A stretch of 64,000 nucleotides of DNA from positions 2,356,001 to 2,420,000 of the forward strand of contig CM102289.1 of the NCBI GenBank assembly GCA_046563655.1, written 5' to 3'. This stretch comes from Yuukianura sp. NJ FZ-2021 (Eukaryota). The position numbers and the translations under genes were made by a program. This document shows positions 6,864 through 51,324 of the stretch, piece after piece (the stretch's first letter is position 1; each line of letters opens with the position of its first letter). The notes beneath the pieces are model-generated. The model ran no database searches. It saw nothing but the letters and a program-made list of their open reading frames with translations, and was not told where the DNA came from.

Positions 6864-8044
6864 TCCATGCACTTTATAATAGGTTTGTGTTGCTGTAAAC
6901 TTCAATCCAAAAACCTTAATGTGTTACTGTACTCTCAAAATCTACACAATGTGTGTCCATTTTTAGAAGAAAAATAAAACCACTACAATATCTTATGTCA
7001 CTTGTTCTATTGGCTGTCGCTTTTCTTCTAATGTGAGTCATAAATGAAAGTGAGTCTTCGCAAATCAATGAAATATGGGACATGAAGACATGATAAACTT
7101 GATTTGAAACTTTCTTTTTTAAACTTGTCAGGCCAGAATTTAAAAGCAGACATAAGTGTGATAAGTTTGATTATAACCCAACCAAGCAATGGGACTTGGC
7201 ATTTGATACATCGTATATGTATAGCCTGCCACTATTTTTCTCAACCCGTTCCACTTGTACTGCAGGAATTTCAAGCCCGCAGCTTGCAAAATGGCTGAAA
7301 ATCGGCAACTTGCCCGAACGTGGCTGCCAATAAAGCTCTTTCTGGAAGCCCGTCTGCAGCCCGCGCAATCTACGCAAAGTTAGCTTGCAATAAAACAATA
7401 AATTGTGTTATTCATTACAACCACTTCAGATACTCCGTTTTCCTTTAATTTCCATTGTTTAAACGCGCTATAGTTCGTATATGCTATGGGACACAACATT
7501 ATAGAGTAACCAAAAACGCTATCCAATTTTACTTTTCAAGAAACAAATTTTACTGTTTCTTTCTTCATTTTTTGTGAGATTTGAAAGTTCAAGGCAAACA
7601 ATAACCAACACTCACGTTAGTACAACTGCTAACTTTGAATTGCGTACTATATTTTTTAAGTTTCAAAATTTAGCCCTTTTGAAATTGCCAGAAAATAACA
7701 AGCTAACTGTGCGAAGTTTCAAAAAAAAAAAGGTGAATTTCCGAAAACGTAAATATATGTGTTTTTGTAAACAAAATTGAAAAATATATTTTTTGGTTAC
7801 AAAGATAAGTATACTAATATTCATGTTAACTTTCAAAACAAAATAAATGGCTACAAAATTGATTCTTTTCTCCCACGAAGTTTAGCTTACACATGTAAAT
7901 TTCTATCTTAATTATATTTACAACACAAATTATACTAATAGATTATACTAATTAAAATAATATCTAGTTTAATTATTTTAACAACTTGGTTTTCCAGAAA
8001 AAAGATATGGATTTCGTGTCTATTTTATGATCTTTTAAGAATAA

Positions 8045-9045
8045 ACCGGTTGTAAACCGCCCATACTGATAATAGCGAAGCAATAGGCCCCCCGAAGGGG
8101 GTTTGTTCCCTACCACTTTCCTGCCTCCCCCCCGGGGGGAGTGGGGGTATGTTTTGCCGCTTTTTTGCTCCGCACCCCAGGAAGCGTGGGGGTGTGTTCC
8201 CCCCACTTCCCCGTCCCCCCCCAGGAGGCGTGGGGGTGTGTTCCCCCCACTTTCCCGCCCCCCCCCCAGGAAGCGTGGGGGTGTGTTCCCCCAACTTTTC
8301 CGCCCTTCCCCAGGGGGTGTTGAAAGGTGAGACGTGACAGCTGAGGCGTGACAGGTGACAGGTGAGACGTGACAGGTGACACCCGGCAAGTGACACTTGA
8401 GGGTGACAGGTGACACCCGGTATGTGACAGGTGACACCCGGCAAGTGACACTTGAGGGTGACAGGTGACACCCGGTATGTGACAGGTGACACCCGGCAAG
8501 TGACACTTGAGGGTGACAGGTGACACCCGGCAAGTGACAGGTGGCAGGTGACACCCGGTGGACACAGTGCATGAGTGTGTAAAGTGTCTATGTCAACTGC
8601 GTAATAGATTTTTTGCTAAGCAGAGAACCAAGTCCCACGCCAATTGCCTTCCCAGTCTCACAAGAAGAGTTTTTGTTACACACACTTGCAAGTGACCTTT
8701 GAAATCGATTTTGACCCGGAAGCAGGTGACCTAGGGTCACACATTACACACAAAAGTTGTTCCCCTCGATGAGATGAACAACTTTTGTAGAAGTCATTTT
8801 CCCGGTTACCAGGGATAAAACCGGTTGACCTTGACCTTTGACCCGGAAGGAGTTAACACGCGGGGGTCATATTCAATAGTGACCAAGCCCGGGTCATGAC
8901 ATGGTCACTGGTGAAAACCGGAATCAAATCGGACCAGTAGTTTCTGAGATAATTAATCTGGACAGACAGACAGACGGACAGACAGACAGACAGACAAACC
9001 ACTTTTATCATAATAGCTTCGCTATTATAATAATGAGCGGAAAAT
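8045..9045. mobile_element. Non-autonomous Helentron/HINE (DINE-1-like) element with internal minisatellites
   Basis: Subterminal inverted repeats ATAATAGCGAAGC (~8069) and GCTTCGCTATTAT (~9015), a small hairpin near 8047, and a (GACA)n tract at 8961-8996. Internal GGGGTGTGTTCCCCC repeats at 8095-8320 and GTGACAGGTGACACCCGG repeats at 8325-8565. Confidence 0.7.
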
Positions 9046-9867: not shown

Positions 9868-10175
9868 CAAGGTTCAAGTAGCAACGAAATAGTTTTTCTT
9901 TAACAGGTTAGCTAATAAGTCTCTCTTTTTTTTCAAAAATTTTGCTGCAAACAAATATACAGCAAACATCCCACTGATTTTCCCCCAACTTATGCAAAAA
10001 TTTAACAGTTTGCACAAACAGGAACGTTCCAAATGAAAAAAAAAGTTCGAAGGAAAAATTTCCCGGGAAACGAGAGTTACCGATAATTTTTGAAATTTTG
10101 AAAATTAAAAGAAAAAAAAACAACATATTGCCTAACCTGTTACAGGAAAAACTATTTTCTTATTTACAAACATCG
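9868..10175. mobile_element. CAAGGTT-family MITE in the predicted PKS 5'UTR intron (9860-10252)
   Basis: Begins CAAGGTT, has internal ACAGGTTAG/CTAACCTGT inverted blocks and a degenerate end AACATCG. Flanked by GGTAAGACT / GGTAAGACC. Confidence 0.7.
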
Positions 10176-10262
10176 GGTAAGACCGATAAGGTCAAAATTA
10201 ATTTTAAAATTTTATTTCTACATTGTTTTTAAATTTTCAATTTTTATTTCAGGTAGAAAGAT

Positions 10263-13200
10263 ATGGGTTCCACGACAATTGGTTCTGGTACGCCTATAAC
10301 CACAAAACAATATGAAATGAGAGATGCAATTGCAATCATTGGAATGAGCTGTAGATTTCCGGGTGCGAATAACGCGAAGGAGTTTTGGGAAGTGCTTTGC
10401 TCTGGTCAAGACGCCATTCGGTCATTTCCGGAGGAAAGAGCACAGGAAGCCAAAAATCAATTTGGGATGGATTCGGACATCAAGGCGGGCTTTTTAAAAT
10501 GTAGAGTGGACGAATTCGATGCTCAATTTTTTGGAATTAGCCCTAGAGAGGCCCCATTGATTGATCCTCAGCAGAGACTTCTTTTGGAGGTTACATGGGA
10601 AAGCTTGGAAGACGCAGGAATCAACGCTCACGAACTCAAAAGCACTTCGACTGGCGTATTCACTGGGATTTGGCAACCAGATTACGATAGGATTCTGCAC
10701 ACTACGACAAAGGATGCAAATGACTTGTTCCATCGCTACCTTGGAAACGCTTTTAGCGCAACTGCATCGCGGGTGTCTTACTGCCTTGGCCTACATGGTA
10801 CAAAACCAAGGTTGCTATAGCGACCATTTATTCAAATGCGATAGCAGGTTATGTCATAACTCACTATTCTCCAAAAACTTTTGGACGAATTTTGTATTAA
10901 TCCCATTTGGTTTATATGGCGCAAGGTCAACAAATTGCAGAAAATTTAAAAACAAACAATTTTTGTTTAAATGGGAGTAATGGCATAACCTGTTGAGGAA
11001 AAATAAAAGAAAAACTTCGATTTAAATAATGTTGGTACAAAACAGGAAAAAAAATTAACTTCCCTACGTTTTATAAAGTTACTGAATTTTTTAAATTTGA
11101 TTTTTAGGCCCGGCAATTGCACTCGAATCCGGATGCTCTTCATCCCTTGGCGCCATACATTTGGCCTGTCAAAGTCTTCTTAATGGAGAATCTTCTCTTG
11201 CTATTGCGGGTGGCGTCAACTTAATCCTGATTGGAGCGAATCCGTTTACAAATGCTACGGAAACCGAAGGAGACTCCATTGTGCTCTCGAAGGATTTCAA
11301 GTGTAAAACATTTGACGAATCTGCTAATGGATTTGTGCGGTAAGACATAAATTTTTTGGCACAAATATGAAATGCTTATAAAACTGAATTAAAAAAAAAT
11401 AACGCATGGCAGAATGCAAATAATCAACAATGTGTTGTATAACCTAACAGAGCGGAAGGTTGTGGCGTTTTGATTTTGAAGAAATACGAAGAGGCAGTGG
11501 ATACTGGGTGCCACATTTTGGGAATTGTTCGCGGCAGTGCAATAAATAACGACGGAAACGGAAGCAGTTTTGGAACTCCGAGTGCGCATGCTCAAGCAAT
11601 GGTTTTCGAAAAGGCTCTTGAAAAAGCTGGAGTGACGCCAGATCAAGTTTCATTCCTCGAAGCTCATGGAACTGGGACTCCTGTTGGTAAGCATATTTAA
11701 CTGCCTTCATATTTCCTTTTTAAAGCAAACTTTTAAATATTTTTCTATGTAAGTGTAGGTGATCCAATCGAAATGGAAGCCATTCGGTGCGTTTATTCAA
11801 AAAATCGAACGTCTCCTCTTTACATCAGCTCTGTCAAGACTAACATAGGACATTGTGAAGCTGCCGCTGGAATTGCCAGTGTCATCAAAGCAATTCTCTG
11901 CATTCAAAAGAAGCTTCTTCCTCCGCATTTGAACTTGAACAAACTCAATCCATACATCAACTTAGACAAAATTCCAGCGATTATTCCAACGGAAACTACC
12001 GAATGGAAATCAGAGCAACGAATCTGCGCAGTAAGCTCCTTCAGCATGAGCGCCACTAACGTCCATGTCATTCTACAAGAACCCCAAGCAATCGCATGTC
12101 AATCCGCTTCTACTTCACACAGCGTATGCCGCCCACTTGTCATCACGGTTTCTGCAAAATCCAAAGAGGCTTTGGACGCTTTGATTCAAGGTTCGTGAAG
12201 GCACAAATGGTTTTTTCTACAACAGGTTGTCCTATAACTCCGGGTTTTTTAATTTTGTGCTTTCAAAAATTAAACCGGTTCATCTTGACCTCCGTTTAGG
12301 TTACAAGTTTATCTTTTTTCCCTTGTAGTAATAGTCTACCAGTTGGAAAAAATTAGAGGAAAAAACTCAAACAAAATTGGTGCAGGAGGTTTGAAGTAAG
12401 ATTTTTGGAAACCCTGAGTTATTGGACAACGTGTTGTAGGAAATACGACTCGGTTGTCAAATAACCTTGCTTTGATTGCAGCTTATGTCAAATATTTGGA
12501 AAATCATACGAACATCACCCTGGAAAACTTTGCTTATGCTGTGAACGTCACTAGGGCGCCATTGCCGCACCGAATTGCTATTACTGCGTCAACGACGCAA
12601 GAAGTTCTGGAAAAATTGAAACGCCAAGATTGGTCATACGCAAAATCATCAAACGTTAAATCAAAAATTGCCTTTCTGTTTCCCGGACAGGGTTGCCAGT
12701 ATGCAGAAATGGTGAAGAATCTCGCAGAATCTTTTCCTGTTTTGCAAAATGCATTGGATGAAGCAGATGAGATATTTGAAGCTTGCCTTCATAAAAAGCT
12801 GACGCATGTCATATGGGAAAACCCAAATCTGTTGAACCAAACACTTTACTGTCAACCTGCAATTGTTGCTGTTGAATACGCCTTGGCACAACTTTGGAAG
12901 TCTTTCGGAATTGTTCCGGATGCAGTTCTGGGACACAGCTTAGGAGAAATAGCTGCGGCGATTTCAGCAGGAGTTTTGTCATTGGAGCAAGGTTTGAAAT
13001 TAATTATTGCTCGTAGTCGTTTAGTCGATAAATTGGAGGAAGGATCTATGTTAGCTGTTAGCGGCAATGAGCAAAGGACAAGATTTCTGATTGCTGAATT
13101 TCAAAAATCCCGCCAGAGTGAATGGATTGACGTAGCAGCAGTAAATTCAAATAGTGAAGTCGTGGTATCTGGCCCTAAAAAAACTATTACGGAATTTGCT

Positions 13201-16200
13201 GAATATTGCCGTGAACAACGCGTGGAAACAATTGCAATATCAGCACAACATGCCTTTCACTCAAGGCAAATGGACGATATCCTCAAACCATTTAGAACTG
13301 AACTAGAATCGATTTTAGAAAAAACAGGAAGTGCACCAATCATAAAGTATATTTCGGGAACAGAAGCCAAAGTTGTTGAAACTAGTTTAGCATTTGGTCC
13401 TGACAATTGGGAAAAACACCTACGAAATCCAGTTCGTTTTTCGCGCGCAATTCAAACTTTGCTGAATGATGAATTCCGGACGTTTGTTGAAATTGGGCCC
13501 AGTCCTGTCCTTCTTGGCATCACAATGACAAATGCTGCCGAAACTTCTTTCACCGAACTGAACCTTGTACCTTCCGCCCGGCGTACGGATCCTACACGAC
13601 TTACATTTCACGATTCACTAATCAAGTTATATTTACAAGGACACAGAATTAACTGGAGAGGGCAGACGCCCAACAAAGGCCAACATCTCCAAATTCCGAA
13701 GTATCAATTTCAACGACAGTCATACTGGATAGGACAAAACGTTGACCACAACATGTCGGATGCTGCCCAAATTGGGTCATGTTTTAGTGGCGTTGCGAAT
13801 CAAGACAAAATACATCCGCTCCTCGGTTTAGAAGTCTTCATGCCAGCTTCATTACGCACTTTTGCAAACTTCGTAACGGTTAAACACTATCCATATTTGG
13901 CGGATCACATCGTAGCTGGACTTAAAGTATACCCCGCTGCTGCTTTCATTGAAACTGCATTTGCGGCTGCGCGAGAAATTTTACAGGAAGGCGGTACACT
14001 CAAATGCCCGTTGACCTTACAAAAATTTGGAATTGATGCGGCACTTGACATTGCTACTGGAGTGGAGTTGTATACGACAGTAGAGCAACTTGAAAGTGAA
14101 CATGGACTTACCTACAACTTGGAAATTTTGAAAAAGGTTAAAAATGGAACATTCAAACGGAATATTTCTACAAAATTTGTACCAGGTTGCAAAGCTTTAA
14201 ACAAAAAGCAACTGGATATCAGCGACATCAAACGGCGATTACAAAAGAAAGAAAGTGGAGCAATCGATCGTGTTTATTCTGCCATCGCCAGTAGGGGAAT
14301 AGAATTCGGACCGACATTTCAAAGCATCAAATCCGTCTACACATCAGACAATGGTGAATTTCTAACAGAAATTTGTCTTCAGGAAAATGCGACCTCTGCC
14401 GAATACATTTGTCATCCTGTTGTGATTGATTCATTACTTCAAACAAAAGCGCTCCAAATATACTTTGTAGATGCGAGTAACAATATGAACGTCGGTGACA
14501 ACAAAATCTGTTTACCAATTGCAATCGAACAAATCACGTGGTTTTCGGAAACACTCACGCCGAAACTCTACACTTACTGCTTTCCAAACGAAATAGATGG
14601 CAACTCTTCCGTTTTTTTGGTAAACGAAGATGGGAATTTGCTACTTGAATTGAAGGGGGTAGAGCTAATTGAAACTACTGCTGAAATAGTGTTGAACTCA
14701 ATTGAACATCAAATCCCAAATGACATGAATTTTTCAGCGGAGGTTTGGCGCCCAGTTTCAAATTATACTAAAAACATAGTATCAAGTGTTGTCGAACATT
14801 TTTGCGAAGTTTCGGCTGAATCCGAATGCATTCGGAAGTGTTTAGACGACATCCAACAAATACACGATTTCCATAAATCGGACGATGATTACGATAAACC
14901 TGGATTGCTTGCAATTATGAATGCAGTGCAAGTTTGTGGGTGGCCATATCAGGTACATTACGAAACTGAAAAAAAAACTTTATTATTTAAAGATATTATT
15001 AATTAAACTAATTAGCTAATATCTATATCTGAATTCCAATTTGTTGTAATTTTTATTCCCTGCGATAATGTTCCAGGTCGGAGCGATTTTGAACCCAGAA
15101 GATTGGAAATGTCGAATTCCAGTGGGCGTACCACAGCAAGTCGTCGACTTTTATTTGTACAAGCTTGAAATGACAGGATACCTCCAAAGTGTACAAGTCT
15201 CTGAAGGTTCAGGGTATCGCGTACTGCGACAATTGGAATCACCGTCAAATTGTGAAAAACTTGTTCGGGAAATAGGAGTTAAGGCAAGAAATGAAATATT
15301 CAGTTTCAATATGGCTTGGATGGTTAAGTACTGCGATGAGCTGCCACTAGTTCTGAGTGGAAAAATGACGCCTATAGAATACCACTTTCCCACCGATACT
15401 ACAAAACTAGGTGCAATGAAATTCTACACTGAGGCAATAGCTTACCGACATCAGTGCGTCATGGCCATTGACTGTTTGATTCAAACTGTTAAGAATCTAA
15501 CTACTCCGAATCCGAATACATCCGACGAACATGGAAAAACGGTTTATCCCAACGAAAAAACCTTGACGACACAAATTTTGGAAGTTGGGGGTGGAGGTGG
15601 AATGGCCACTGAGTTGCTCATTTCTCAGTTGAAATCAACCTCACATTCTTTTGAATACACGTTTACAGACATTTCACCATTTCTTGTCGATGCAGCTAAG
15701 AAAACGTTTTCAATCTACCCTGAATTTGCTTTCCAAACTTTCGATATTGAGAAAGATCCACTTCCGCAAGGCTATTTGCCAGAATCATTTGATTTAATAT
15801 TTGCATGCCAGGTATTGCATGCAACCCGAGATTTGGCAGAAACTCTACAAAACTTGAAGGTTCTTCTGCGATCTGGTGGGCGCTTAATTTTTACAGAGTC
15901 GTTCGGAATTATGGAATTTTTTGATTTGACTTTTGGACTGTTAGAAGGTTGGTGGAGATTTAGCGACTTTAGAAAAGAAGAAGGAAACTTAACACCAGTC
16001 GTTTCTTCCGATAAATGGCGCGAACTTTTGATCAGAAATGGATTTGAAAATGTGAAAACAATCGAAACGGCGTACCCGGGTGGAGTAGTAGTAGCTACTA
16101 AATCAAACGCACAGTTGTTGCCTACTGCTGTGCCAATGCATGGTGAACATATTTCAAAGCCTAGCTGGGTCACGGTATCGGATCAAAATCCATTGGCTGC

Positions 16201-19200
16201 AAGTGTGATCGAATTACTACGACAGTCTAATAGAAATGTGACAACGTACAACGTTGAAGACTGCATTCTGAAGGATGTATTGCTAGACGTGAATTTGGAA
16301 GGAGTTTTGTTCTTTTGGACAGGAAGCGACGATGAAGAAGGTTTCGCCGGTGAACAAGAAAAGTACATTGGCAGCCTTCTCCGCCTCCTCAAATTTTACG
16401 TCGTCACAGAAAAAGCGAAAGGCTCCAAAATTCGAATTGTGACTCGCGGGGCGTTTCAAATTGGAGACGACGAAATTCCAAGTCCCAACAAAACAGCGCT
16501 GTGGGGACTTGTGAGAGCGTTTCGCAACGAATGTCAACGGTACGATCCTTTCCTCATAGACTTCGGTCAAGTAGAAGGCAAACACGAAAGTCACCAGCTA
16601 TTTGCTACTCTGTTTACCCCAAAAGCCGAAGAAGCAACCGCTTTTCGAGGTGACCGGACATACGTGCTTCGATTCGTGGATGAACTGCCGAAACGACACA
16701 AAGTCAAACTACCAAATTGCGAGCGCTATCGGTTCATAAATCCGCCGAGTAATTGCTTCACTGATATTAAAATTGGACCTGACACTGCTAGAGATCTAAG
16801 GGACACGGATATTGAAGTTGCCGTCAGAGCATGCGCACTAAACTTCAAAGACATTTTTTGTGTACTAAAACCAAAGGAATTTCAAATTCCAAAAGAACAT
16901 CTGGAACATATCGGCCTCGACGTTTCTGGAGTCGTGACCCGAGTTGGGTCAAAAGTTACACGACATCAAGTTGGAGACGAAGTAGCCGGAATATCTTCGG
17001 CGTGTGGTATTGCGAGTCATACAGTATCCTCTGAATTCGGATTTTGGAAAAAACCTAAAGAAATTTCGTTTGCGGCTGCTGCTGGATGCCCTACAGTGTA
17101 TCTGACAGCACACTATGCACTACATCACTTAGCCAAAATACAACCCGGCGACCGTGTGTTGATTCATGCTGGAGCTGGCGGCGTTGGCCTTGCAGCTATT
17201 GATATTGTAAAGAATTGTCAAGGCCAGGTTTTTGCAACGGCCGGATCAAAACGAAAACGGACCTATTTGCGAAGATTTTGCGGAGTAAGTCAGATCTACA
17301 ACTCTAGAAACACCAGTTTTGGGCAACAAATTCTTGATGAGACAAATGGGGTGGGTGTTGACATCGTGCTGAATTGCCTCACCGGACCAGGATTCAAAGA
17401 AGCATCACTTGCAGCGACTGCGCTCAACGGAAGATTCGTTGAATTGGCCAAGCTGAACATTTGGACAACCGCAGAGATCAATCAGCTCCGTCCAGACGTT
17501 GACTACAAATTTATTGAGTTGGTTTCTATGGATTTCATGGAAAAGGAGACCTTCCAGATACAATGCGCAAGCTTGAACTTAAATTTCGCGACCAGCTTCC
17601 GAAACTTCCATGTAAAGTTTTTCCTCTAGAGGATATTCAATCCGCTTTTTATTACTTTCAAGAAGCAAAACAAATTGGAAAAGTCGTATTGCGCATGCCG
17701 GCAACAGAAGTTAACAACGGAGCTCTAATTCACATAAACAAAATCTTTAATACGTGTTCCACTTATCTTATTACTGGTGGCCTTGGTGGAATAGGAATTG
17801 AGTTGGCAAAATGGATGACAATCAAGGGAGCTGCAAATATTGTTTTGGTTGGAAGAAAACAAGCTTCTACCCATGCGCAGGCAGTTATTGATGATTTAAG
17901 GAACAAAGGACTCAACATTCTTGTTTTAAATCTGGACATTTCAAAAGAAGAAGACTGTGACAGAACTGTTCCGCGCAGTTGAAGATTCCAAAACATTTCC
18001 GCCGATCAAAGGAATTTTCCATGCTGCTGGAGTACTGCACGACGCAGCATTTGAAAACCAAAGTTGGGAATCACTGAACGCCTCACTTGCTCCAAAAGCC
18101 CACGGCGCATGGAATTTGCACTGTCGCTTTCTAAACACAGATTTGGAATTTTTTGTTTTATTTTCTTCTGCAGCGTCACTGTTTGGCAGCATCGGTCAAG
18201 CACCTCACGCAACTGCAAACAAGTACTTGGATGGGTTCGCGTGGTATCGGCATTCGCTCGGCTTGCCTGCAACGAGCATCAACTGGGGATTGTGGTAAAT
18301 AATTTTGGTGTATTTTGAAACTAAATTTTATAAATCTCCCCATTTTTTTCAAGAACCTATTCCTGCGGCAAATTATTTTTTATTCATTTTTCCATTATTT
18401 AGGAAAGACATTGGAGCAGGAGTTGGTGTCACAAATGACCAAGAAAATAGGCTTGGCCTTAAGGGATTTCCTCCAAGGGACGGTTTCAGGGCATTAGAAG
18501 AACTGATGACTTCAGACTTGCCACAAGTAGCATTCGTACCCACACGCGGCTGGAAAATTATGAAAAGCTTCTTCTCTCTTGGTCACTATTTCGATGAAGT
18601 AGAAATTCACAAGGATACGAGTGACAGATTAGAAGAATTGCAAAAGGAAATTGATGTCATCAAAACCATGTGAACCCGAGTCTACGACAAGAAAAACTGC
18701 GTGTAAGTTCTTGAGTCAATTATCAAAGAAACACTGAGGCTTCCAAAAGACGAAGTTCTGGACATCGACCAGCCACTTGAGTGAAATGGGAGTCGATTCT
18801 CTTATGGGTATGGAAATGAAGACACGTCTAGAAAAGTTAACGAGTCGTAATCTTCCAATCAGCACGCTTCAAGAGTACCGTACTATTCGGAAGCTGTCAG
18901 CGTATGTCGCTCGGGTTCTAGACGACGACAAAGATTCAAACGCATCTTCCATTGATCAAAAGCATGTTTTAAGTTCGGACTCAATTTTGCCGTCCGAGCT
19001 GAAGGAAGCTTTGGAAAATGCTTCGAAGAAATCAGCAACAAACAGAGATTTTAAATCAATTCTTTTGACCGGCGCGACGGGTCACTTCGGCGCTCACGTC
19101 CTTCCAGAAATTCAGAAAATGAGCAAGGAAATTCACATATTTTGTTTGCTTCGTGCAGCTTCTGACGAAATTGCAAGAGAAATTCTTCACAAAACTCTGA

Positions 19201-20226
19201 CATATTATGACCTCTTGGGAGAGGTCAACTTTAACCAAATTTCTGTTATTGCTGGAGACATTTGTCATGACCTGCTTGGATTGCCACAGAAAAAGTACGA
19301 TTTGTTGACTGCACGAGTTGACGCGGTTGTTCATTGTGCCGCAAAGGTCAATCATGTTGAGAGTTACTATGACGGTTCTGGATTTGACATGCGATCGGTC
19401 AATGTCCTAGGCCTTCTGCGCATCCTCAAATTCTGTACAGGAGGACGACTCAAGCATATCATGTATCCATCAGCTTTGTTATGTGTGACGGAACTGGATG
19501 AGGATGGAGCACTTCCAGAACGTTGGCTACCACTCAATTCTTTTGAGAAAATACAAAATGGATATCTTCAATCCGAAAAGCATTTGTGAGGCGCTACTGC
19601 AACAAGCTGAAGAAGCCGGACTTCCGGTCACGCTTTTCCGAATTCCATTTTTGTATGCGAGCTACGCTACGGGAATTCCGAGCAGAGGATTTGATCACGT
19701 CTGGACTCTAATTTCAACTTGTATCAGACTAAGAAAGTTTCCAAACCTTGTTCATACTGGAGGAATTCCAATATTTCCGGCCAATATTTGTGCCCAAATT
19801 TGTGCAGAAATTTTCATGAAAAGTGACACCGAAACTGGAGTATACAATCTCATCAACGTCAAACAAATTACGCAGCAAGACGCACAAGCAATTGGGGCCG
19901 AGCTGGGCATTGACTTTGAAATTGTTGAGTTTACTGAGTGGAGGGACGCTGCATTCGAAGAATTGGATGACGATTTGATGCGACCATTGTTTCCAATCTA
20001 CGCCGACACAGAAAGTGGACAATCAAATGTGTTTGCGTTTCACTCTTTGGGAAACGAATGGAACCGAGCGCTCCACAGGGACTACAGTACAAAAACTCTT
20101 AAAAACCTGCCGGGAATTGAAGCGGTGAATTCGTTTTCTCCACAGGAGTTATTTCGACGTCGCTTAGTGAATTCCGTACAACAAGAACAACAAAAATTGT
20201 CCAAAAAGAACAGCGCTTTTGCATAG
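10263..20226 (+). CDS. Single-module type I polyketide synthase KS-AT-DH-cMT-ER-KR-ACP-thioester reductase (~2980 aa); frameshifted in this assembly
   Basis: KS: DPQQRLLLE, ESGCSSS, EAHGTGT, KTNIGHCEAAAG. AT: FPGQG, GHSLG, HAFHS. DH: HIVAGLKVYP, DSLLQ. MT: LEVGGGGG, VLHAT. ER: LIHAGAGGVG. KR: ITGGLGGIG, HAAGVLHD. ACP: GVDSL. R: LTGATGHFG, GYLQSK. Predicted introns 10798-11107, 11340-11450, 11687-11758, 12191-12481, 14953-15076, 18295-18402. Confidence 0.93.
10807..11034. mobile_element. CAAGGTT-family MITE in the first coding intron of the PKS
   Basis: CAAGGTT ... CAGGTTATGTCAT / ATGGCATAACCTG ... AATGTTG. Flanked by the 9-bp duplication GTACAAAAC, which includes the intron donor. Confidence 0.75.
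12187..12469. mobile_element. CAAGGTT-family MITE inserted in PKS coding sequence and predicted to splice out as intron 12191-12481
   Basis: TIR CAAGGTT...AACCTTG, internal CTACAACAGGTTGTCC / GGACAACGTGTTGTAG, and TSD CTTTGATT at 12179-12186 and 12470-12477. Confidence 0.9.
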
Positions 20227-21007
20227 ACACATTTTTTGAAACGTGTAATCGGGGAATTAATAGCTATTATTACTAGTAGTTAAATCATTCGAGTCTGTAC
20301 TTGCCTATTAGTTGAATGTAATCCGACATAAAAACGAAAAGTCTTTCTTGAATTTGGACAGAGGAACAAACAGACTTACAAAAATATTTACTGAAAACCG
20401 GCGAAATATTTAACTAAATACAATATTCACCAAAAAAGATCGAAATATTTCACAAATTTTGATGCCATAATTTGCGTCTCTAAATCCATCCTGAAGGTCC
20501 CTGGGTCCCTGGCACAATTTTTACAAACTGAGTAAAAATTCTGGATGTTTAATTTCGAAGTGAAATAAATCACCAAGACATCGGCAACTGTTTGCATGTT
20601 TGAACGAAAGGTAGAGCGAATTTCCGTACTCCACACTGATTCATCCGCGGCAAATATATCGATGTCTGTTGTTAAACAGAAACCGATGTTGCAGTTGTAA
20701 ACAGAAACGATTTATGTTAAATAATCAACAATAAGCCGTTTTCCATTGGTACTTCAAGCACTCGACTCCAAAGAAAAAAGTGCAGAGAGTGAAAATCCAA
20801 CTGCAAAAATAAATTGTCACGTCTAATTTATTCACGAACATACGATTGTAATTATCCAATTCTTCCTGGAGATTTCATATGTTATAAAATCCAGTTGATA
20901 AGTTGATTTGTCACTTGAATTCTGCTTTTTATTCAACCAATTAGTACCAGTTGACCTTCGTCAAAGGCTGAACGTGGTTGATGATTCTACTGTAATCAGT
21001 TTTGAAA

Positions 21008-25612
<4,605 letters not shown>

Positions 25613-45748: not shown

Positions 45749-46603
45749 ACTTACAAGTCCTTATAGCACTTGCTAAATGCATCATAAAAAGATCAGGAAT
45801 TGCTTTTCTGGAATTTTTGACATGCTTCAAAAACTGGGTGTATGATACCCACTTAATAAAATAGAATTACAGAAATATGAACACAAGCTAATAGTAACAT
45901 CGAGCATTCTATTAAATAAATTTTGAATTTCAATATTGTGATTGAAGTTTTCATTGTAGTTCTGCTGTACCAGGTTCGGTACAGCAGAACGTAAGGCATG
46001 AGTTTAATAAGTACAAACTTTCCAAGTTAGAAAAAGTGCAAAGTACAAAACAAATGATAGCTGAGGAATACAAAATAACTTAGATATATACACAATACTT
46101 GACGGGATACCCACGAAATGACATATGAAATCGGCTCATCGTTTAGGAATCTTTGACAAGAATCCAAGAATTCGGAATATTAAAGTCATTAAAAAATAGT
46201 ATTACAGAAATATGAATGCATACTAATGGTAAGGTCGAGTAGGGTATTAAATAAATTGACAGTCTGAATTTCAATATTTTGCATTCCTCCTCCAAAGTTT
46301 GAAAACCGTCATACTTCCACGAAGTATTTTTTCAATAGTTTAAAATTTCAGAACGAAATTAAGAATTTCCATTATCTATGTTTGTGAATTTAGTTCAAAA
46401 TTTCTATTCGTATATTGAAAAAGCTTCTTCTTTTTTTAAGAAAGTATTATTAAAGAAACATGTCTTTTAAGTGGCTTTACTTTGATGGAATCAATACAGA
46501 CTGTCTAAAATGGCTAAGAATTTCAAAAGAAATAGGAGAATTTTCAGGCTATATTGAGCTTTTTTTATTGAACTTCATTTTAGTTCGAAATATATATTCA
46601 AAC

Positions 46604-48141
46604 ATGAAGAAAACTCTCCCTCCGGATATTTTGGTTCTACTGCGCTCAATTGCAAATGCACACCAAACTTATCAAAATCCATTGCAGTACAATCAACGGC
46701 GTAACCGTTGCACCTTAGACGAATCAAAAAAGTATCAAAATTGGTCATTTTGCGTTTTATTCGTCGACACATTTGCACTGTTCGTGCTTGGCTTCCTGGC
46801 GTCAATTAACTACTTCAAAGATCTCAGTCCATTGCTCACTTTTCACTTACTTTCAATAGTTTTAATGGATGGTCACAACATCGTATGTGACATACATGCT
46901 GTATACAGAGGGAGAAAGCTCTGGCAACAAGTACTCAACGTGATACTACAACACCTAGACAAAAACAACGGTAAATTAAAATTAACCGTTGTAAATGCCG
47001 TAGGGCAGTAACGAAATAAATTTTAAGGCATTTGCCATGCACTATTTGATTGCATGCAACCTTTAAAAGCTGTACAGTCAAAGCTCATAGGGTGGCCTTC
47101 ACAATTTTTTTTTTAACGAGAGGTTGTTTCTCTCGATTTACAACGAGGGGTCGGAATTCAGTGGCTTTTTGCGGAAACTCGAATTCCGAATACATTGGAA
47201 TTTTAGTCAGCCAAATTCAAATTCAAATTCGAATTTCAGCTTCCCTCTTCCCTAAGGTTTTTGATTAAGAATATTTGATATTTGAATATTTTGTCTGTTT
47301 TAAAGAATTCTTTTTCTATTATGCAGATTCACTTTTTCGCTGGACAGGAGCAAAGGTCAATACACTTCGTTGTATGAAGGTGTTCTACTATTTGACTCCA
47401 GTGTTTGGCACAGGCTACGTGTGCACTACTGTCATTGGATTTTACAGTGATGCTGTACGCCTAATAGAAGTAGTCATGCTGTACATGTCACTAGATATCT
47501 ATTTGCATAGCGAAATATTTATCATCGTATCACAGTTTTTGGTATTAGTCGTTTTTGGATTTTTTGCTTTTTTAATATATTTAACCACATACAAATATAT
47601 TCAGTATGGCCTTGTTGTGCTTGTTCTTCACGATCTAGCACAAGCTTCATTATCTACTGCACAATTCAACGAGAAAGCCACCGAATTTTTCTTGCACTTG
47701 GAAATTCAGCGCTACAAAGCATTCTACATTTTGGTAGCCTTAGTCAGCGACTTTTTTCTGCTACCGTTCGCGTCATATGTCATACTAGCCTCTGGGTTTA
47801 CATCAATATCATTTGCTGTATTTTTTAAAATTGGGTTTAAATCAATTTATGGCTATCTTATTGTAAGTATGGCGACGATAATATTGGTTTTCCTAAATAT
47901 TTTCCTCTTCGCTGCGGAGTCGTTAGGTTCTGCTTCCAAGAACTTCATCTCTAAACTAATGAAAATGCCTGGAATGTCAAAAGAGGGTGTTAAGGTAGCC
48001 AGCTGCCTAAAACCAAGCTTTATAAGATGTGGAACACTGAACTACGTTGATAGTGGAATGATTATGAACATCAACGCAAATATTATAGACTACATGATAT
48101 CTCTACTCATCTTACTAAAGGAAACATCTATTTCAAACTGA
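46604..48141 (+). CDS. Gustatory-receptor-like 7TM chemoreceptor, copy 1 (intron 46971-47326)
   Basis: ~390 aa, multiple hydrophobic helices. The C-terminal FIRCGTLNYVDSGMIMNINANIIDYMISLL resembles the arthropod GR TM7 motif. One of four paralogues. Confidence 0.7.
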
Positions 48142-49445: not shown

Positions 49446-49744
49446 TAGTATACTGAAAGCATTTTCTTGTTTTTTTAAAGAATAATAAAAGAAACATACA
49501 ACGATTTCTAAATTGACTGGCTCCACTTGGCTTATCTGGAATAAATAATTTCTGTTTTTTAGCATTATTGGATTCATTCCCGGTCGTAAATTTGGAAACC
49601 GTCCCATTTCCTATACTTTTTAAGTGTATTAGAGAAGTAGGCGGTTTGCTTCCAGTATTGCATATTTTTTGCGGGGTTAATTGACATTAGCATTTGCGCT
49701 CTATCAACAAGGGTAGGGAATTTCTTAGGTTGGGTTGAGGTCAT

Positions 49745-49889
49745 ACAGGGTGAGGCGGTGGTCCAGTCAAGTAGTTGGCGAGAAGTTCTGCGGCGAGAAG
49801 TCGTGTCGGCGACTCCGGGCCTCGAACCCGCGCCCAACCATGGTGTTGGTAGGACAGGGAAACGCTCTATTCCCCTCGGACTACTGGCC
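49745..49889 (-). mobile_element. tRNA-derived SINE head (3' extent uncertain)
   Basis: Minus strand reads GGCCAGTAGTCCGAGGGGAATAGAGCG (A box-like) ... GGGTTCGAGGCCC (B box). GC-rich island in AT-rich DNA. Confidence 0.6.
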
Positions 49890-50019
49890 TTGGACTCAGT
49901 GTTGTATATTTCGTATCTGCTCTAGAATAGCTAAAAAATTTCAAAACGAAGACAATAATGTTCAAGTTAAATGGAGTTTTTTCTTTAACATAATTTTACC
50001 TCAAAAGTTCTATTCGAAC

Positions 50020-51324
50020 AGGATCGAACTCTTCCCGCCGGACCAAGCTATTTCGCTTCTATTGCGCTCAATTGAAAATGCACACCAAACATATCAAAAT
50101 CCACTGCAGTACAATCAATCGCGTAACCGTTGCACCTTGGACGAATCAAAAAAGTATCGACTGCGGGCATTTTGTGTTTTACTGGCAAATACATTTGGAT
50201 TGTTCGTGTTTACCTTCCTTGCGTTTATTAACTACTCCAACAATCTTACTCCGTTGCTCACTTTTCACTTTGTTTCAATAGCTTTTCTTGATGTTCATAA
50301 CATTGTTTGTGATATAAATGCAATATATAGAGGAAGAAAACTGTGGCAACAAGTACTCAACGTGATACTACAAAATCTAGACACAAACAACGGTAAGATT
50401 AAATTAATCCGTGAATGTCGAAAACGTTGTAAAAATTTTTTGCAAAACAAGTTGATAGAGTAACAGTTAATACAAGACTGATAGACTAATGCAATTGATT
50501 ATGCAGAAACTCTTCTTCGATGGCCAGGTACAAACTACAATATATTTGGCCTTATGAAAGTGGTCTACCATTTGGCTCCAGCGTTGACCGCTGGCTACGT
50601 ATGTGCCACTACCATTGGATACTACAGTGATGCTGTGCGCCTTATAGAAATTGTAATGCTGTATATGTCGCCGTGTTTCGATTTCCATGCCAACATTTTT
50701 GCAATTATTCTTTCACACTTTTTTGTCTTGCTCCTTTTTGGATTTTTCTCCATTTTAGCATATCTAACTGCATACAAATATGCTCAGTATGGAGTTTTTT
50801 CATGTGTTTTTTACGAAATGGTGCAAGCCTACCTATCTACTGCACATTTTAAAGATAACGCCAACGAATTATTCGTATACGTTGAAATGCAGCGCCAAAA
50901 ATCCGTCTATATTTTGATAGACTTATTCAGCGACTTTCTTCTGCTACCATTTGGTTCATATGTTATACTAGGCTCAGGGTTTATATCAATATCTTATGCT
51001 TTGTTTTTAAAAATTGGTTTTAATTCTATGTATGGTTATCTTATTGTAATTGTGGCGACGTTCATATATGTTTTCTTAAATTTTTTCCTCTTTGGCGCGG
51101 AAGGAATGCGTTCTGCTTCAAAGAAGTTCATCTCTAAACTAATAAAAATGCTGGAAATGTCGAAAGAGGGTGCTACGGTAGCCAACAGCCTAAAACCAAG
51201 TTTCGTCAGATGCGGAACACTCAATTACGTTGATAGTGGAATGATTATGAACGTGAATGCAAATATTATAAGCTACGTAATATCCCTACTCATTTTACTA
51301 AAGGAAACATCCTTTCCGAACTGA
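50020..51324 (+). pseudogene. GR-like receptor copy 2; start codon ATG replaced by AGG, otherwise intact (intron 50393-50506)
   Basis: Paralogues read TATTCAAAC-ATG, this copy reads TATTCGAAC-AGG. The downstream frame is open to the stop at 51324. Confidence 0.55.

Follow-up and report, generated by a model that had tools for sequence, protein, structure and literature searches.

How might an animal gene come by a new intron, and could a transposon landing in the middle of an exon supply nearly everything that is needed? The question is raised by a gene for a type I polyketide synthase (PKS) at about 10263-20226 of a 64,000-nucleotide stretch of the genome of Yuukianura sp. NJ FZ-2021 (GenBank assembly GCA_046563655.1, contig CM102289.1, positions 2,356,001 to 2,420,000 of the forward strand). 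This whole stretch is called the window here; positions are counted from its first letter, and features lie on its forward strand unless the reverse is stated. In the linker between the ketosynthase (KS) and acyltransferase (AT) domains of this gene sits a miniature inverted-repeat transposable element (MITE; 12187-12469), 283 bp long and non-coding. We hold it highly probable that the intron-shaped interval at this site was built entirely by the MITE within a former exon. With rather less assurance, we also lean towards splicing between 12191 and 12481 as the main product, which would make the interval a transposon-derived intron.

The element is a genuine MITE and belongs to a family of many copies, its limits being set by the window sequence, the family copies, contig depth and the contig breaks at 12469. 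It opens with CAAGGTT and closes with AACCTTG, and its terminal inverted repeats (left, 12187-12247; right, 12409-12469) have arms of 61 nt, imperfect at 74% complementarity and longer than the initial annotation of this locus had described. Two identical copies (8/8) of a target-site duplication (TSD), CTTTGATT, flank it, the left at 12179-12186, where it encodes Leu-Ile, and the right at 12470-12477; counting the element's final G, the exact direct repeat extends to 9 nt (GCTTTGATT). Open reading frames (ORFs) within the element reach at most 48 codons from stop to stop. Shorter than about 600 bp, non-coding, bounded by inverted repeats and a TSD of fixed length, and present in many copies, it has the properties by which MITEs are recognised. 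It lies in sense orientation, with its 5'-type end towards the upstream exon. Four public DNA sequencing runs (X1-X4, from two studies) were aligned as contigs to 10200-24000, and in X1 the summed contig depth reached 19567 in the bin holding the PKS MITE vs 535 and 282 in the neighbouring bins (37-69x); tens of contigs with unlike flanks stop exactly at 12469, also at 12389, or start at 23366. The 8-bp TSD, together with a CAAGG terminus that matches what we take to be the hAT end motif (YARNG), fits a hAT-like element, with an ambiguity between 8 and 9 bp in two related copies (21232-21433 and the one in PKS intron 1). Neither an autonomous partner nor a hAT transposase was seen within the 64-kb window.

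That the insertion site was formerly continuous coding sequence emerges from the reading frames on either side. The flanking ORFs span 11737-12198 and 12418-15006, and removal in silico of the element and one TSD joins frames of 150 and 842 codons; when the entire window was searched for 8-bp TSDs around inverted ends, eight candidates came up, of which the PKS MITE alone restored a long ORF. Upstream, exon D (11759-12190, following an acceptor AG at 11757-11758) carries the end of the KS domain and the first part of the linker, its final CAAG being the first four bases of the element. Downstream, exon E (12482-14952) holds the remaining linker and the AT and DH domains, and ends at the donor CAG/GTACAT at 14953 (a slash marks the cut here and below). 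The closest PKS relative, P0001, is a single ORF of 2023 residues from a metagenome contig; its residues 1-138 match 11773-12183 at 68% identity (tblastn) and its residues 137-958 match 12469-14955, with 47% identity over exon E. Joined by coordinates, the element-free form reads ...ALIAAYVKYL and the spliced form ...SAKSKEALDALIQAYVKYL, and both proteins align without a gap to P0001, which runs through the insertion site as ...ALKALTASYIKYL / ...SAKSSDALKALTASYIKYL, with Ala at the altered position. Because the joined frame is gap-free against P0001 and the 291 nt of the predicted intron are the 283 nt of the element plus 8 nt of TSD, there was no intron at this site before the insertion: an uninterrupted exon is supported, the putative intron being element plus TSD and nothing more. 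The predicted intron thus has the build of an introner, which equals element plus TSD with the frame kept (291 = 283 + 8), and does so by one length-preserving pair of splice sites only.

That an older intron stood here, into which the MITE merely fell, is scarcely credible and was rejected: two other copies do lie in older introns (10807-11035 and 23366-23610), but those true cases, in PKS intron 1 and in a carboxylesterase gene, keep ordinary intron sequence after removal, whereas here nothing intronic is left once the element and one TSD are taken out, and the frame then runs on unbroken and gap-free against P0001.

The predicted intron (12191-12481, 291 nt) has its GT at 12191-12192 and its AG at 12480-12481, the latter in a host acceptor, GCAG/ at 12478-12481, that lies 4 nt beyond the TSD. 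Both predicted cuts are thus offset 4 nt rightward from the insertion boundaries. The donor AAG/GTTCGT is composed wholly of the tip of the left terminal repeat, and the predicted mRNA junction is TTGATTCAAG/CTTATGTC, in which GCAG is swapped for CAAG and a single codon changes from GCA to CAA (Ala to Gln) in a message of unchanged length. When 27 GT sites were paired with 17 AG sites around the element, four GT-AG pairs kept an open frame: 12191/12481, the sole one to preserve protein length; 12191/12418, adding 21 residues; 12191/12439, adding 14; and 12195/12554, removing 23. The acceptor at 12481 is preceded by a better pyrimidine run (CCTTGCTTTGATTGCAG), to which the right TSD copy contributes, and a possible branch point, AATAAC at 12460-12465, lies 17 nt upstream of the AG within the right terminal repeat. 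The interval folds through its terminal repeats into a long hairpin (-96 kcal/mol, z-score -4.62, with 0 of 100 shuffles as good), in the modelled centroid structure of which the donor would be unpaired. The orientation of the element yields G at +5 and T at +6 of the donor; at ends of the other type the sequence is GTTATT, GTTTTT or GTTCCT. As for the exchanged residue, a count over 358 aligned KS-AT linker segments from 240 PKS relatives found A 68, E 65, Q 52, G 49 and R 43 times at the altered position, by which Gln is an ordinary residue at a variable place in the linker. The initial annotation had described a 283-bp element between two TSD copies, the left one coding, whose removal restores the linker, and a splice from the element's tip to the host AG that keeps length and turns Ala into Gln; its coordinates and arithmetic are correct on all these counts. 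Its further claim that this was the only sensible splice was too strong, given three more open-frame pairs.

Taken together, a sequence of events can be proposed. A non-autonomous hAT-like MITE would have inserted into the uninterrupted linker coding sequence of an animal type I PKS and thereby given rise to a spliceosomal intron that was not there before. The 5' splice site would come from the opening bases of its terminal repeat (CAAG/GTTCGT), a branch-point-like AATAAC and a run rich in pyrimidines would come from its right terminal repeat and the duplicated target, and a host AG present there by chance would serve as the 3' splice site; pairing of the 61-nt repeats may also bring the two splice sites close to one another. 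Since both cuts would have moved by the same 4 nt, the length of the message is kept and only the exchange of GCAG for CAAG remains. Efficient use of these sites by the spliceosome is something we infer.

Several observations weigh against splicing of this kind as the normal fate of the transcript. The donor GTTCGT, with T at +3 and C at +4, is atypical for the genome: all seven of the other recognisable donors in the window (GTACAA, GTAAGA, GTAAGC, GTACAT, GTAAAT, GTAAGA and GTAATG) have A at +3. A competing GT at 12195 (TTC/GTGAAG), 4 nt downstream, would shift the frame if paired with the acceptor at 12481, and the acceptors at 12418 and 12439 in the right repeat keep the frame as well. By our estimate, chance would place a host AG at exactly +4 in about one of 16 insertions, so the fit alone is no proof of selection. 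A search for sequencing runs returned four DNA runs in two studies and 0 RNA runs, and is silent on expression, while protein searches at longer and near lengths and among the best 150 representatives found no transcript-derived PKS protein. P0001 spans 11773-18295, beginning at exon D and stopping at ...INWG(L/V)W where an intron of the window gene starts at 18296; its ends thus coincide with intron positions of that gene, and it has no intron at 12191-12481 nor at the place of the ordinary intron 14953-15076. It is probably eukaryotic, from a related but intron-poorer gene. The initial annotation had proposed a PKS relative lacking the intron as a check, and P0001 does read through the site with Ala, but because it lacks an ordinary intron as well, the absence at the MITE site says little about timing. 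The comparison of the PKS frame with reads extends to three of its four frameshifts, the one near 17970 being the fourth, and the argument for age set out below depends on a single table row in which the synonymous share of the differences is not visible.

The alternative that draws most on these points is that the insertion has recently abolished or strongly weakened the function of this allele, the MITE being removed not at all, poorly or imprecisely. The in-frame pair would then be a coincidence, and the intact look of the gene would mean that too little time has elapsed for decay. We regard this as possible, if on balance unlikely. The atypical donor and the expectation of a host AG at +4 about once in 16 insertions speak for it; so does the perfect TSD (8/8), which fits a young insertion where three other copies show 7/8 or are ambiguous, and so does the behaviour of the family, which acts as ordinary MITEs do, with five of six copies or ends in older introns or gene flanks. 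Set against it are the element's orientation, the only one to give a usable donor, the existence of a length-preserving pair that changes one residue to a common one, and catalytic motifs and long ORFs that are still intact. The sequencing runs bear on the same point. Their contig listings cover 15 of 90 joints and 32 of 4379 pieces; none of the 15 joints listed, over the four runs, is the empty-site joint 12186-12478, which argues weakly against an empty allele, and none of the 32 pieces listed crosses the left junction. A 634-nt contig (X2 record 10) covers 12417-13046 (630 nt) with 0 differences and crosses the right junction. A 2007-nt contig (X3 record 19) runs from 53 nt inside the element to 14417 with 120 differences from the window (6%), and appears to share the right junction, which argues for age. 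If this diverged contig represents an allele, a paralogue or a sister lineage, its sequence suggests that the insertion is older than the 6% divergence and that the frame has been kept open since; an insertion that predates the divergence with its frame open favours a working intron. Contigs differing by 6% from the window over parts of the PKS gene were seen in both X4 (record 29) and X3 (record 19).

Much less probable is removal of the interval mainly through other sites, namely the donor at 12191 with the acceptors at 12418 or 12439, or the pair 12195/12554. In each of these pairs the frame stays open, and KS-AT linkers do vary in length, a gap falling within 14 residues of the site in 137 of the 358 aligned segments. 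Against this, the pyrimidine run is better at 12481, P0001 is gap-free against the length-preserving product, and the acceptors at 12418 and 12439 would be held in the stem of the predicted hairpin. Less probable still is an assembly artefact, in which assembly errors set a repeat copy down in the wrong place, inside the gene. The window and the read contigs disagree by single-base indels at 17544, 18670-18707 and 19573-19575, and the window has a 100-N gap at 22941-23040, both of which do point to an imperfect assembly. A perfect duplication of host coding sequence is what real transposition leaves behind, and independent short contigs (X2 record 10 and X3 record 19) span the right junction into exon E, from runs that may share a sample with the assembly. 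On the duplication and these contigs, the artefact was rejected.

If the favoured reading of a MITE-derived intron spliced at 12191/12481 is kept, is it an isolated accident or the work of a family that makes introns? By blastn and a profile of the element's ends, related ends were found in the window at 9868/10171, 10807, 21232/21433, 23366/23610 and 25804, making six copies or ends with the PKS element included, all between 9.8 and 25.8 kb and alike at their ends only (76-85%). The 5'-type and 3'-type ends differ consistently from copy to copy, which makes the 74% complementarity a feature of the family rather than a sign of decay. One copy (9868-10177), with the TSD GTAAGAC[T/C] (7/8), precedes the PKS start codon (ATG at 10263) by about 90 bp. 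Another (10807-11035) lies inside the older PKS intron 1 (10798-11107, 310 nt), beginning 9 nt past the donor GT and flanked by a direct repeat, GGTACAAAAC, at 10797-10806 and 11034-11043, within which an 8-bp TSD reads TACAAAAC (8/8); without the MITE and one repeat this intron would measure about 72 nt by our count, similar to its neighbours. A third (23366-23610), with the TSD AGTAATA[C/G] (7/8), sits within an intron of the carboxylesterase gene next to the PKS, and a fourth, on the reverse strand (21232-21433), lies directly upstream of a carboxylesterase exon, with a TSD readable only as 9 bp with one mismatch. Four insertions, that in the KS-AT linker being the first, thus have 8-bp TSDs. 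Three family copies lie in or at the PKS gene. Among the six copies or ends, one forms a putative intron, two lie in older introns and three in gene flanks, and the label introner-like, which the initial annotation had applied, is not supported for the family within the window. We therefore read the case as a single transposon-derived intron rather than as a demonstrated introner family. That the CAAGGTT family actively makes introns in an animal lineage, possibly arthropod, from which no such transposon is known is a doubtful proposition on present evidence. Were it true, the CAAG/GTTCG tip would be a built-in 5' splice site, such that any sense insertion upstream of NNAG would yield an exact, length-neutral intron, and the PKS case would be one of many recent intron gains, some of them still polymorphic.

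The gene that received the element looks alive, judging by its long ORFs and domain motifs. Its order is KS-AT-DH-MT-ER-KR-ACP-reductase, in agreement with the criteria for a type I PKS of modular type with a single module (KS, AT and ACP, with DH, MT, ER, KR and a terminal reductase). The ORF translations contain GCSSS, EAHGTGT, NIGH, GHSLGE, HAFHS, HxxxGxxxxP, EVGGGGG, HAGAGGVG, TGGLGGIG, GVDSL and TGATGHFG, which we take to be the catalytic motifs of the respective domains; Pfam identified PP-binding and NAD_binding_4, and the relatives found are PKSs. The other introns are short (10798-11107, 11340-11450, 11687-11758, 14953-15076, and one from 18296 with an end not placed to the base). In the window the frame is broken at four sites (17544, near 17970 within about 17964-17996, 18670-18707 and 19573-19575). 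At 17544 there is an extra G in all four runs, and run contigs lack single bases at 18670, 18675, 18707, 19573 and 19575; indel errors of the assembly would seem to account for these three breaks (17544, 18670-18707 and 19573-19575). Around the intron from 18296, X1 and X2 contigs link 18298 to 18519, 220 nt being left out or substituted, which may betray a second haplotype whose intron differs at this place.

Relatives of the PKS beyond P0001 are bacterial-type enzymes at 37% identity or less, which means that the animal PKS lineage is poorly sampled. Searches with the exon E protein found no close orthologue, either at longer lengths (P0001 at 47%, others at 35% or less) or at near lengths (best 36%). 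A query from 12469-13500 found no near-identical protein among the best 150 representatives (31-40% identity; short fragments would rank below this list), which were 2,520-7,801 residues long and each matched in 2-6 stretches. The single related locus found among metagenome contigs, at 31% identity, was uninformative.

Elsewhere in the window, the neighbouring genes encode CD36, Reeler, a rhodopsin-type seven-transmembrane receptor, a carboxylesterase, ABCC and an IKK-like kinase, and this company supports an animal gene context. The best matches of the ABCC fragment in named animals, namely fish, a tardigrade and a mealybug, reach 30-36%. The 100-N gap at 22941-23040 lies inside the carboxylesterase gene. 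A second repeat of very high depth occupies 21725-22185 (17609 in X1 vs about 350 nearby), and read contigs there show numerous rearranged joints. Between 46454 and 58312, four or more paralogues of two exons each stand in tandem (for example 46454-47011 with 47269-48141, and 49729-50463 with 50485-51324), the products of which appear to be multi-pass membrane proteins without a Pfam match; their feature-based look-alikes in the Atlas are unnamed clusters, for the most part of arthropods, a weak pointer to that group. In a low-complexity segment at 7973-8615, several frames, from both strands, are open, with ORFs of 160-204 codons and Pro/Gly-rich repeats (GGVFPP...PPGG).

Should the interval be spliced as predicted, it would present the birth of an intron at base resolution, with a donor from the tip of a transposon and an acceptor from a chance host AG, and with an equal 4-nt offset at both ends that costs a single tolerated amino-acid change. 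In algae, fungi and protists, the gain of introns from transposons is amply recorded; in animals it is rare, and a further case there with a plain mechanism would be a useful worked example and a reason to survey the genome. As a single locus with predicted splicing, it leaves current knowledge unchanged.

How, then, does it compare with what has been described? The PKS element shares with hAT-superfamily MITEs its 8-bp TSD, small size, lack of an ORF, many copies and insertion near or within genes, while its 61-nt imperfect repeats are longer than is typical of hAT ends. Maize Ds/dSpm belong with further transposons that are spliced from mutant pre-mRNAs, and such cases, those of Tc1, 412 and Ds/dSpm, are mostly imprecise or inefficient laboratory alleles. 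Tc1 is spliced from mutant pre-mRNAs in Caenorhabditis elegans (Rushforth and Anderson 1996, cited in PMC2586383), and the retrotransposon 412 from Drosophila vermilion transcripts (Fridell et al. 1990, cited in the same paper). As in those alleles, an exonic transposon here may be removable through splice sites at or near its ends, there with some rescue of gene function; the PKS case differs in a predicted product that is exact in length and in its setting in a wild genome.

Closer parallels come from introners. A survey of 3325 genomes (Gozashti et al. 2022, PMC9860276) found intron-making transposons in 175 of them, where some families bring a 5' splice site with them and borrow the 3' site and some recruit neighbouring exon sequence; among the 835 animal and land plant genomes they occurred in two groups only, both animal, copepods among them. 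Cases in Strongylocentrotus purpuratus and in the tunicate Styela clava have since been validated by RNA-seq and intron-less orthologues (PMC12130899, 2025), and single transposon-derived introns are recorded in many eukaryotes (review, PMC11282704). What the initial annotation presented as transposon-driven intron gain in an animal gene stands as regards the MITE, the former exon and the animal context; its novelty was overstated, since animal cases had already been reported. These animal introners show the same insertion into coding sequence that becomes an intron, which is predicted here; their sets are genome-wide and the PKS case is one locus. The MITE-derived introns of the tunicate Fritillaria borealis are non-canonical (Henriet et al. 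2019, cited in PMC11282704), most of them lacking GT-AG ends, whereas the PKS interval is GT-AG.

The likeness is strongest to the introners of Micromonas pusilla and Aureococcus anophagefferens, which are likewise short non-autonomous DNA transposons with inverted ends and a TSD, and which likewise use one splice site of the element and one of the host and keep the length of the mRNA, as is predicted for the PKS. They differ in number, many similar copies each forming an intron there and one of six window copies, similar at the ends only, being predicted to do so here. In Micromonas one splice site comes from the element and the other lies in the TSD (PMC11282704); here the co-opted AG lies 4 nt beyond the TSD, one codon is altered and the host is an animal. 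The mechanism, in short, belongs to a described kind, and what sets it apart is its geometry: an acceptor 4 nt beyond the TSD and one codon changed.

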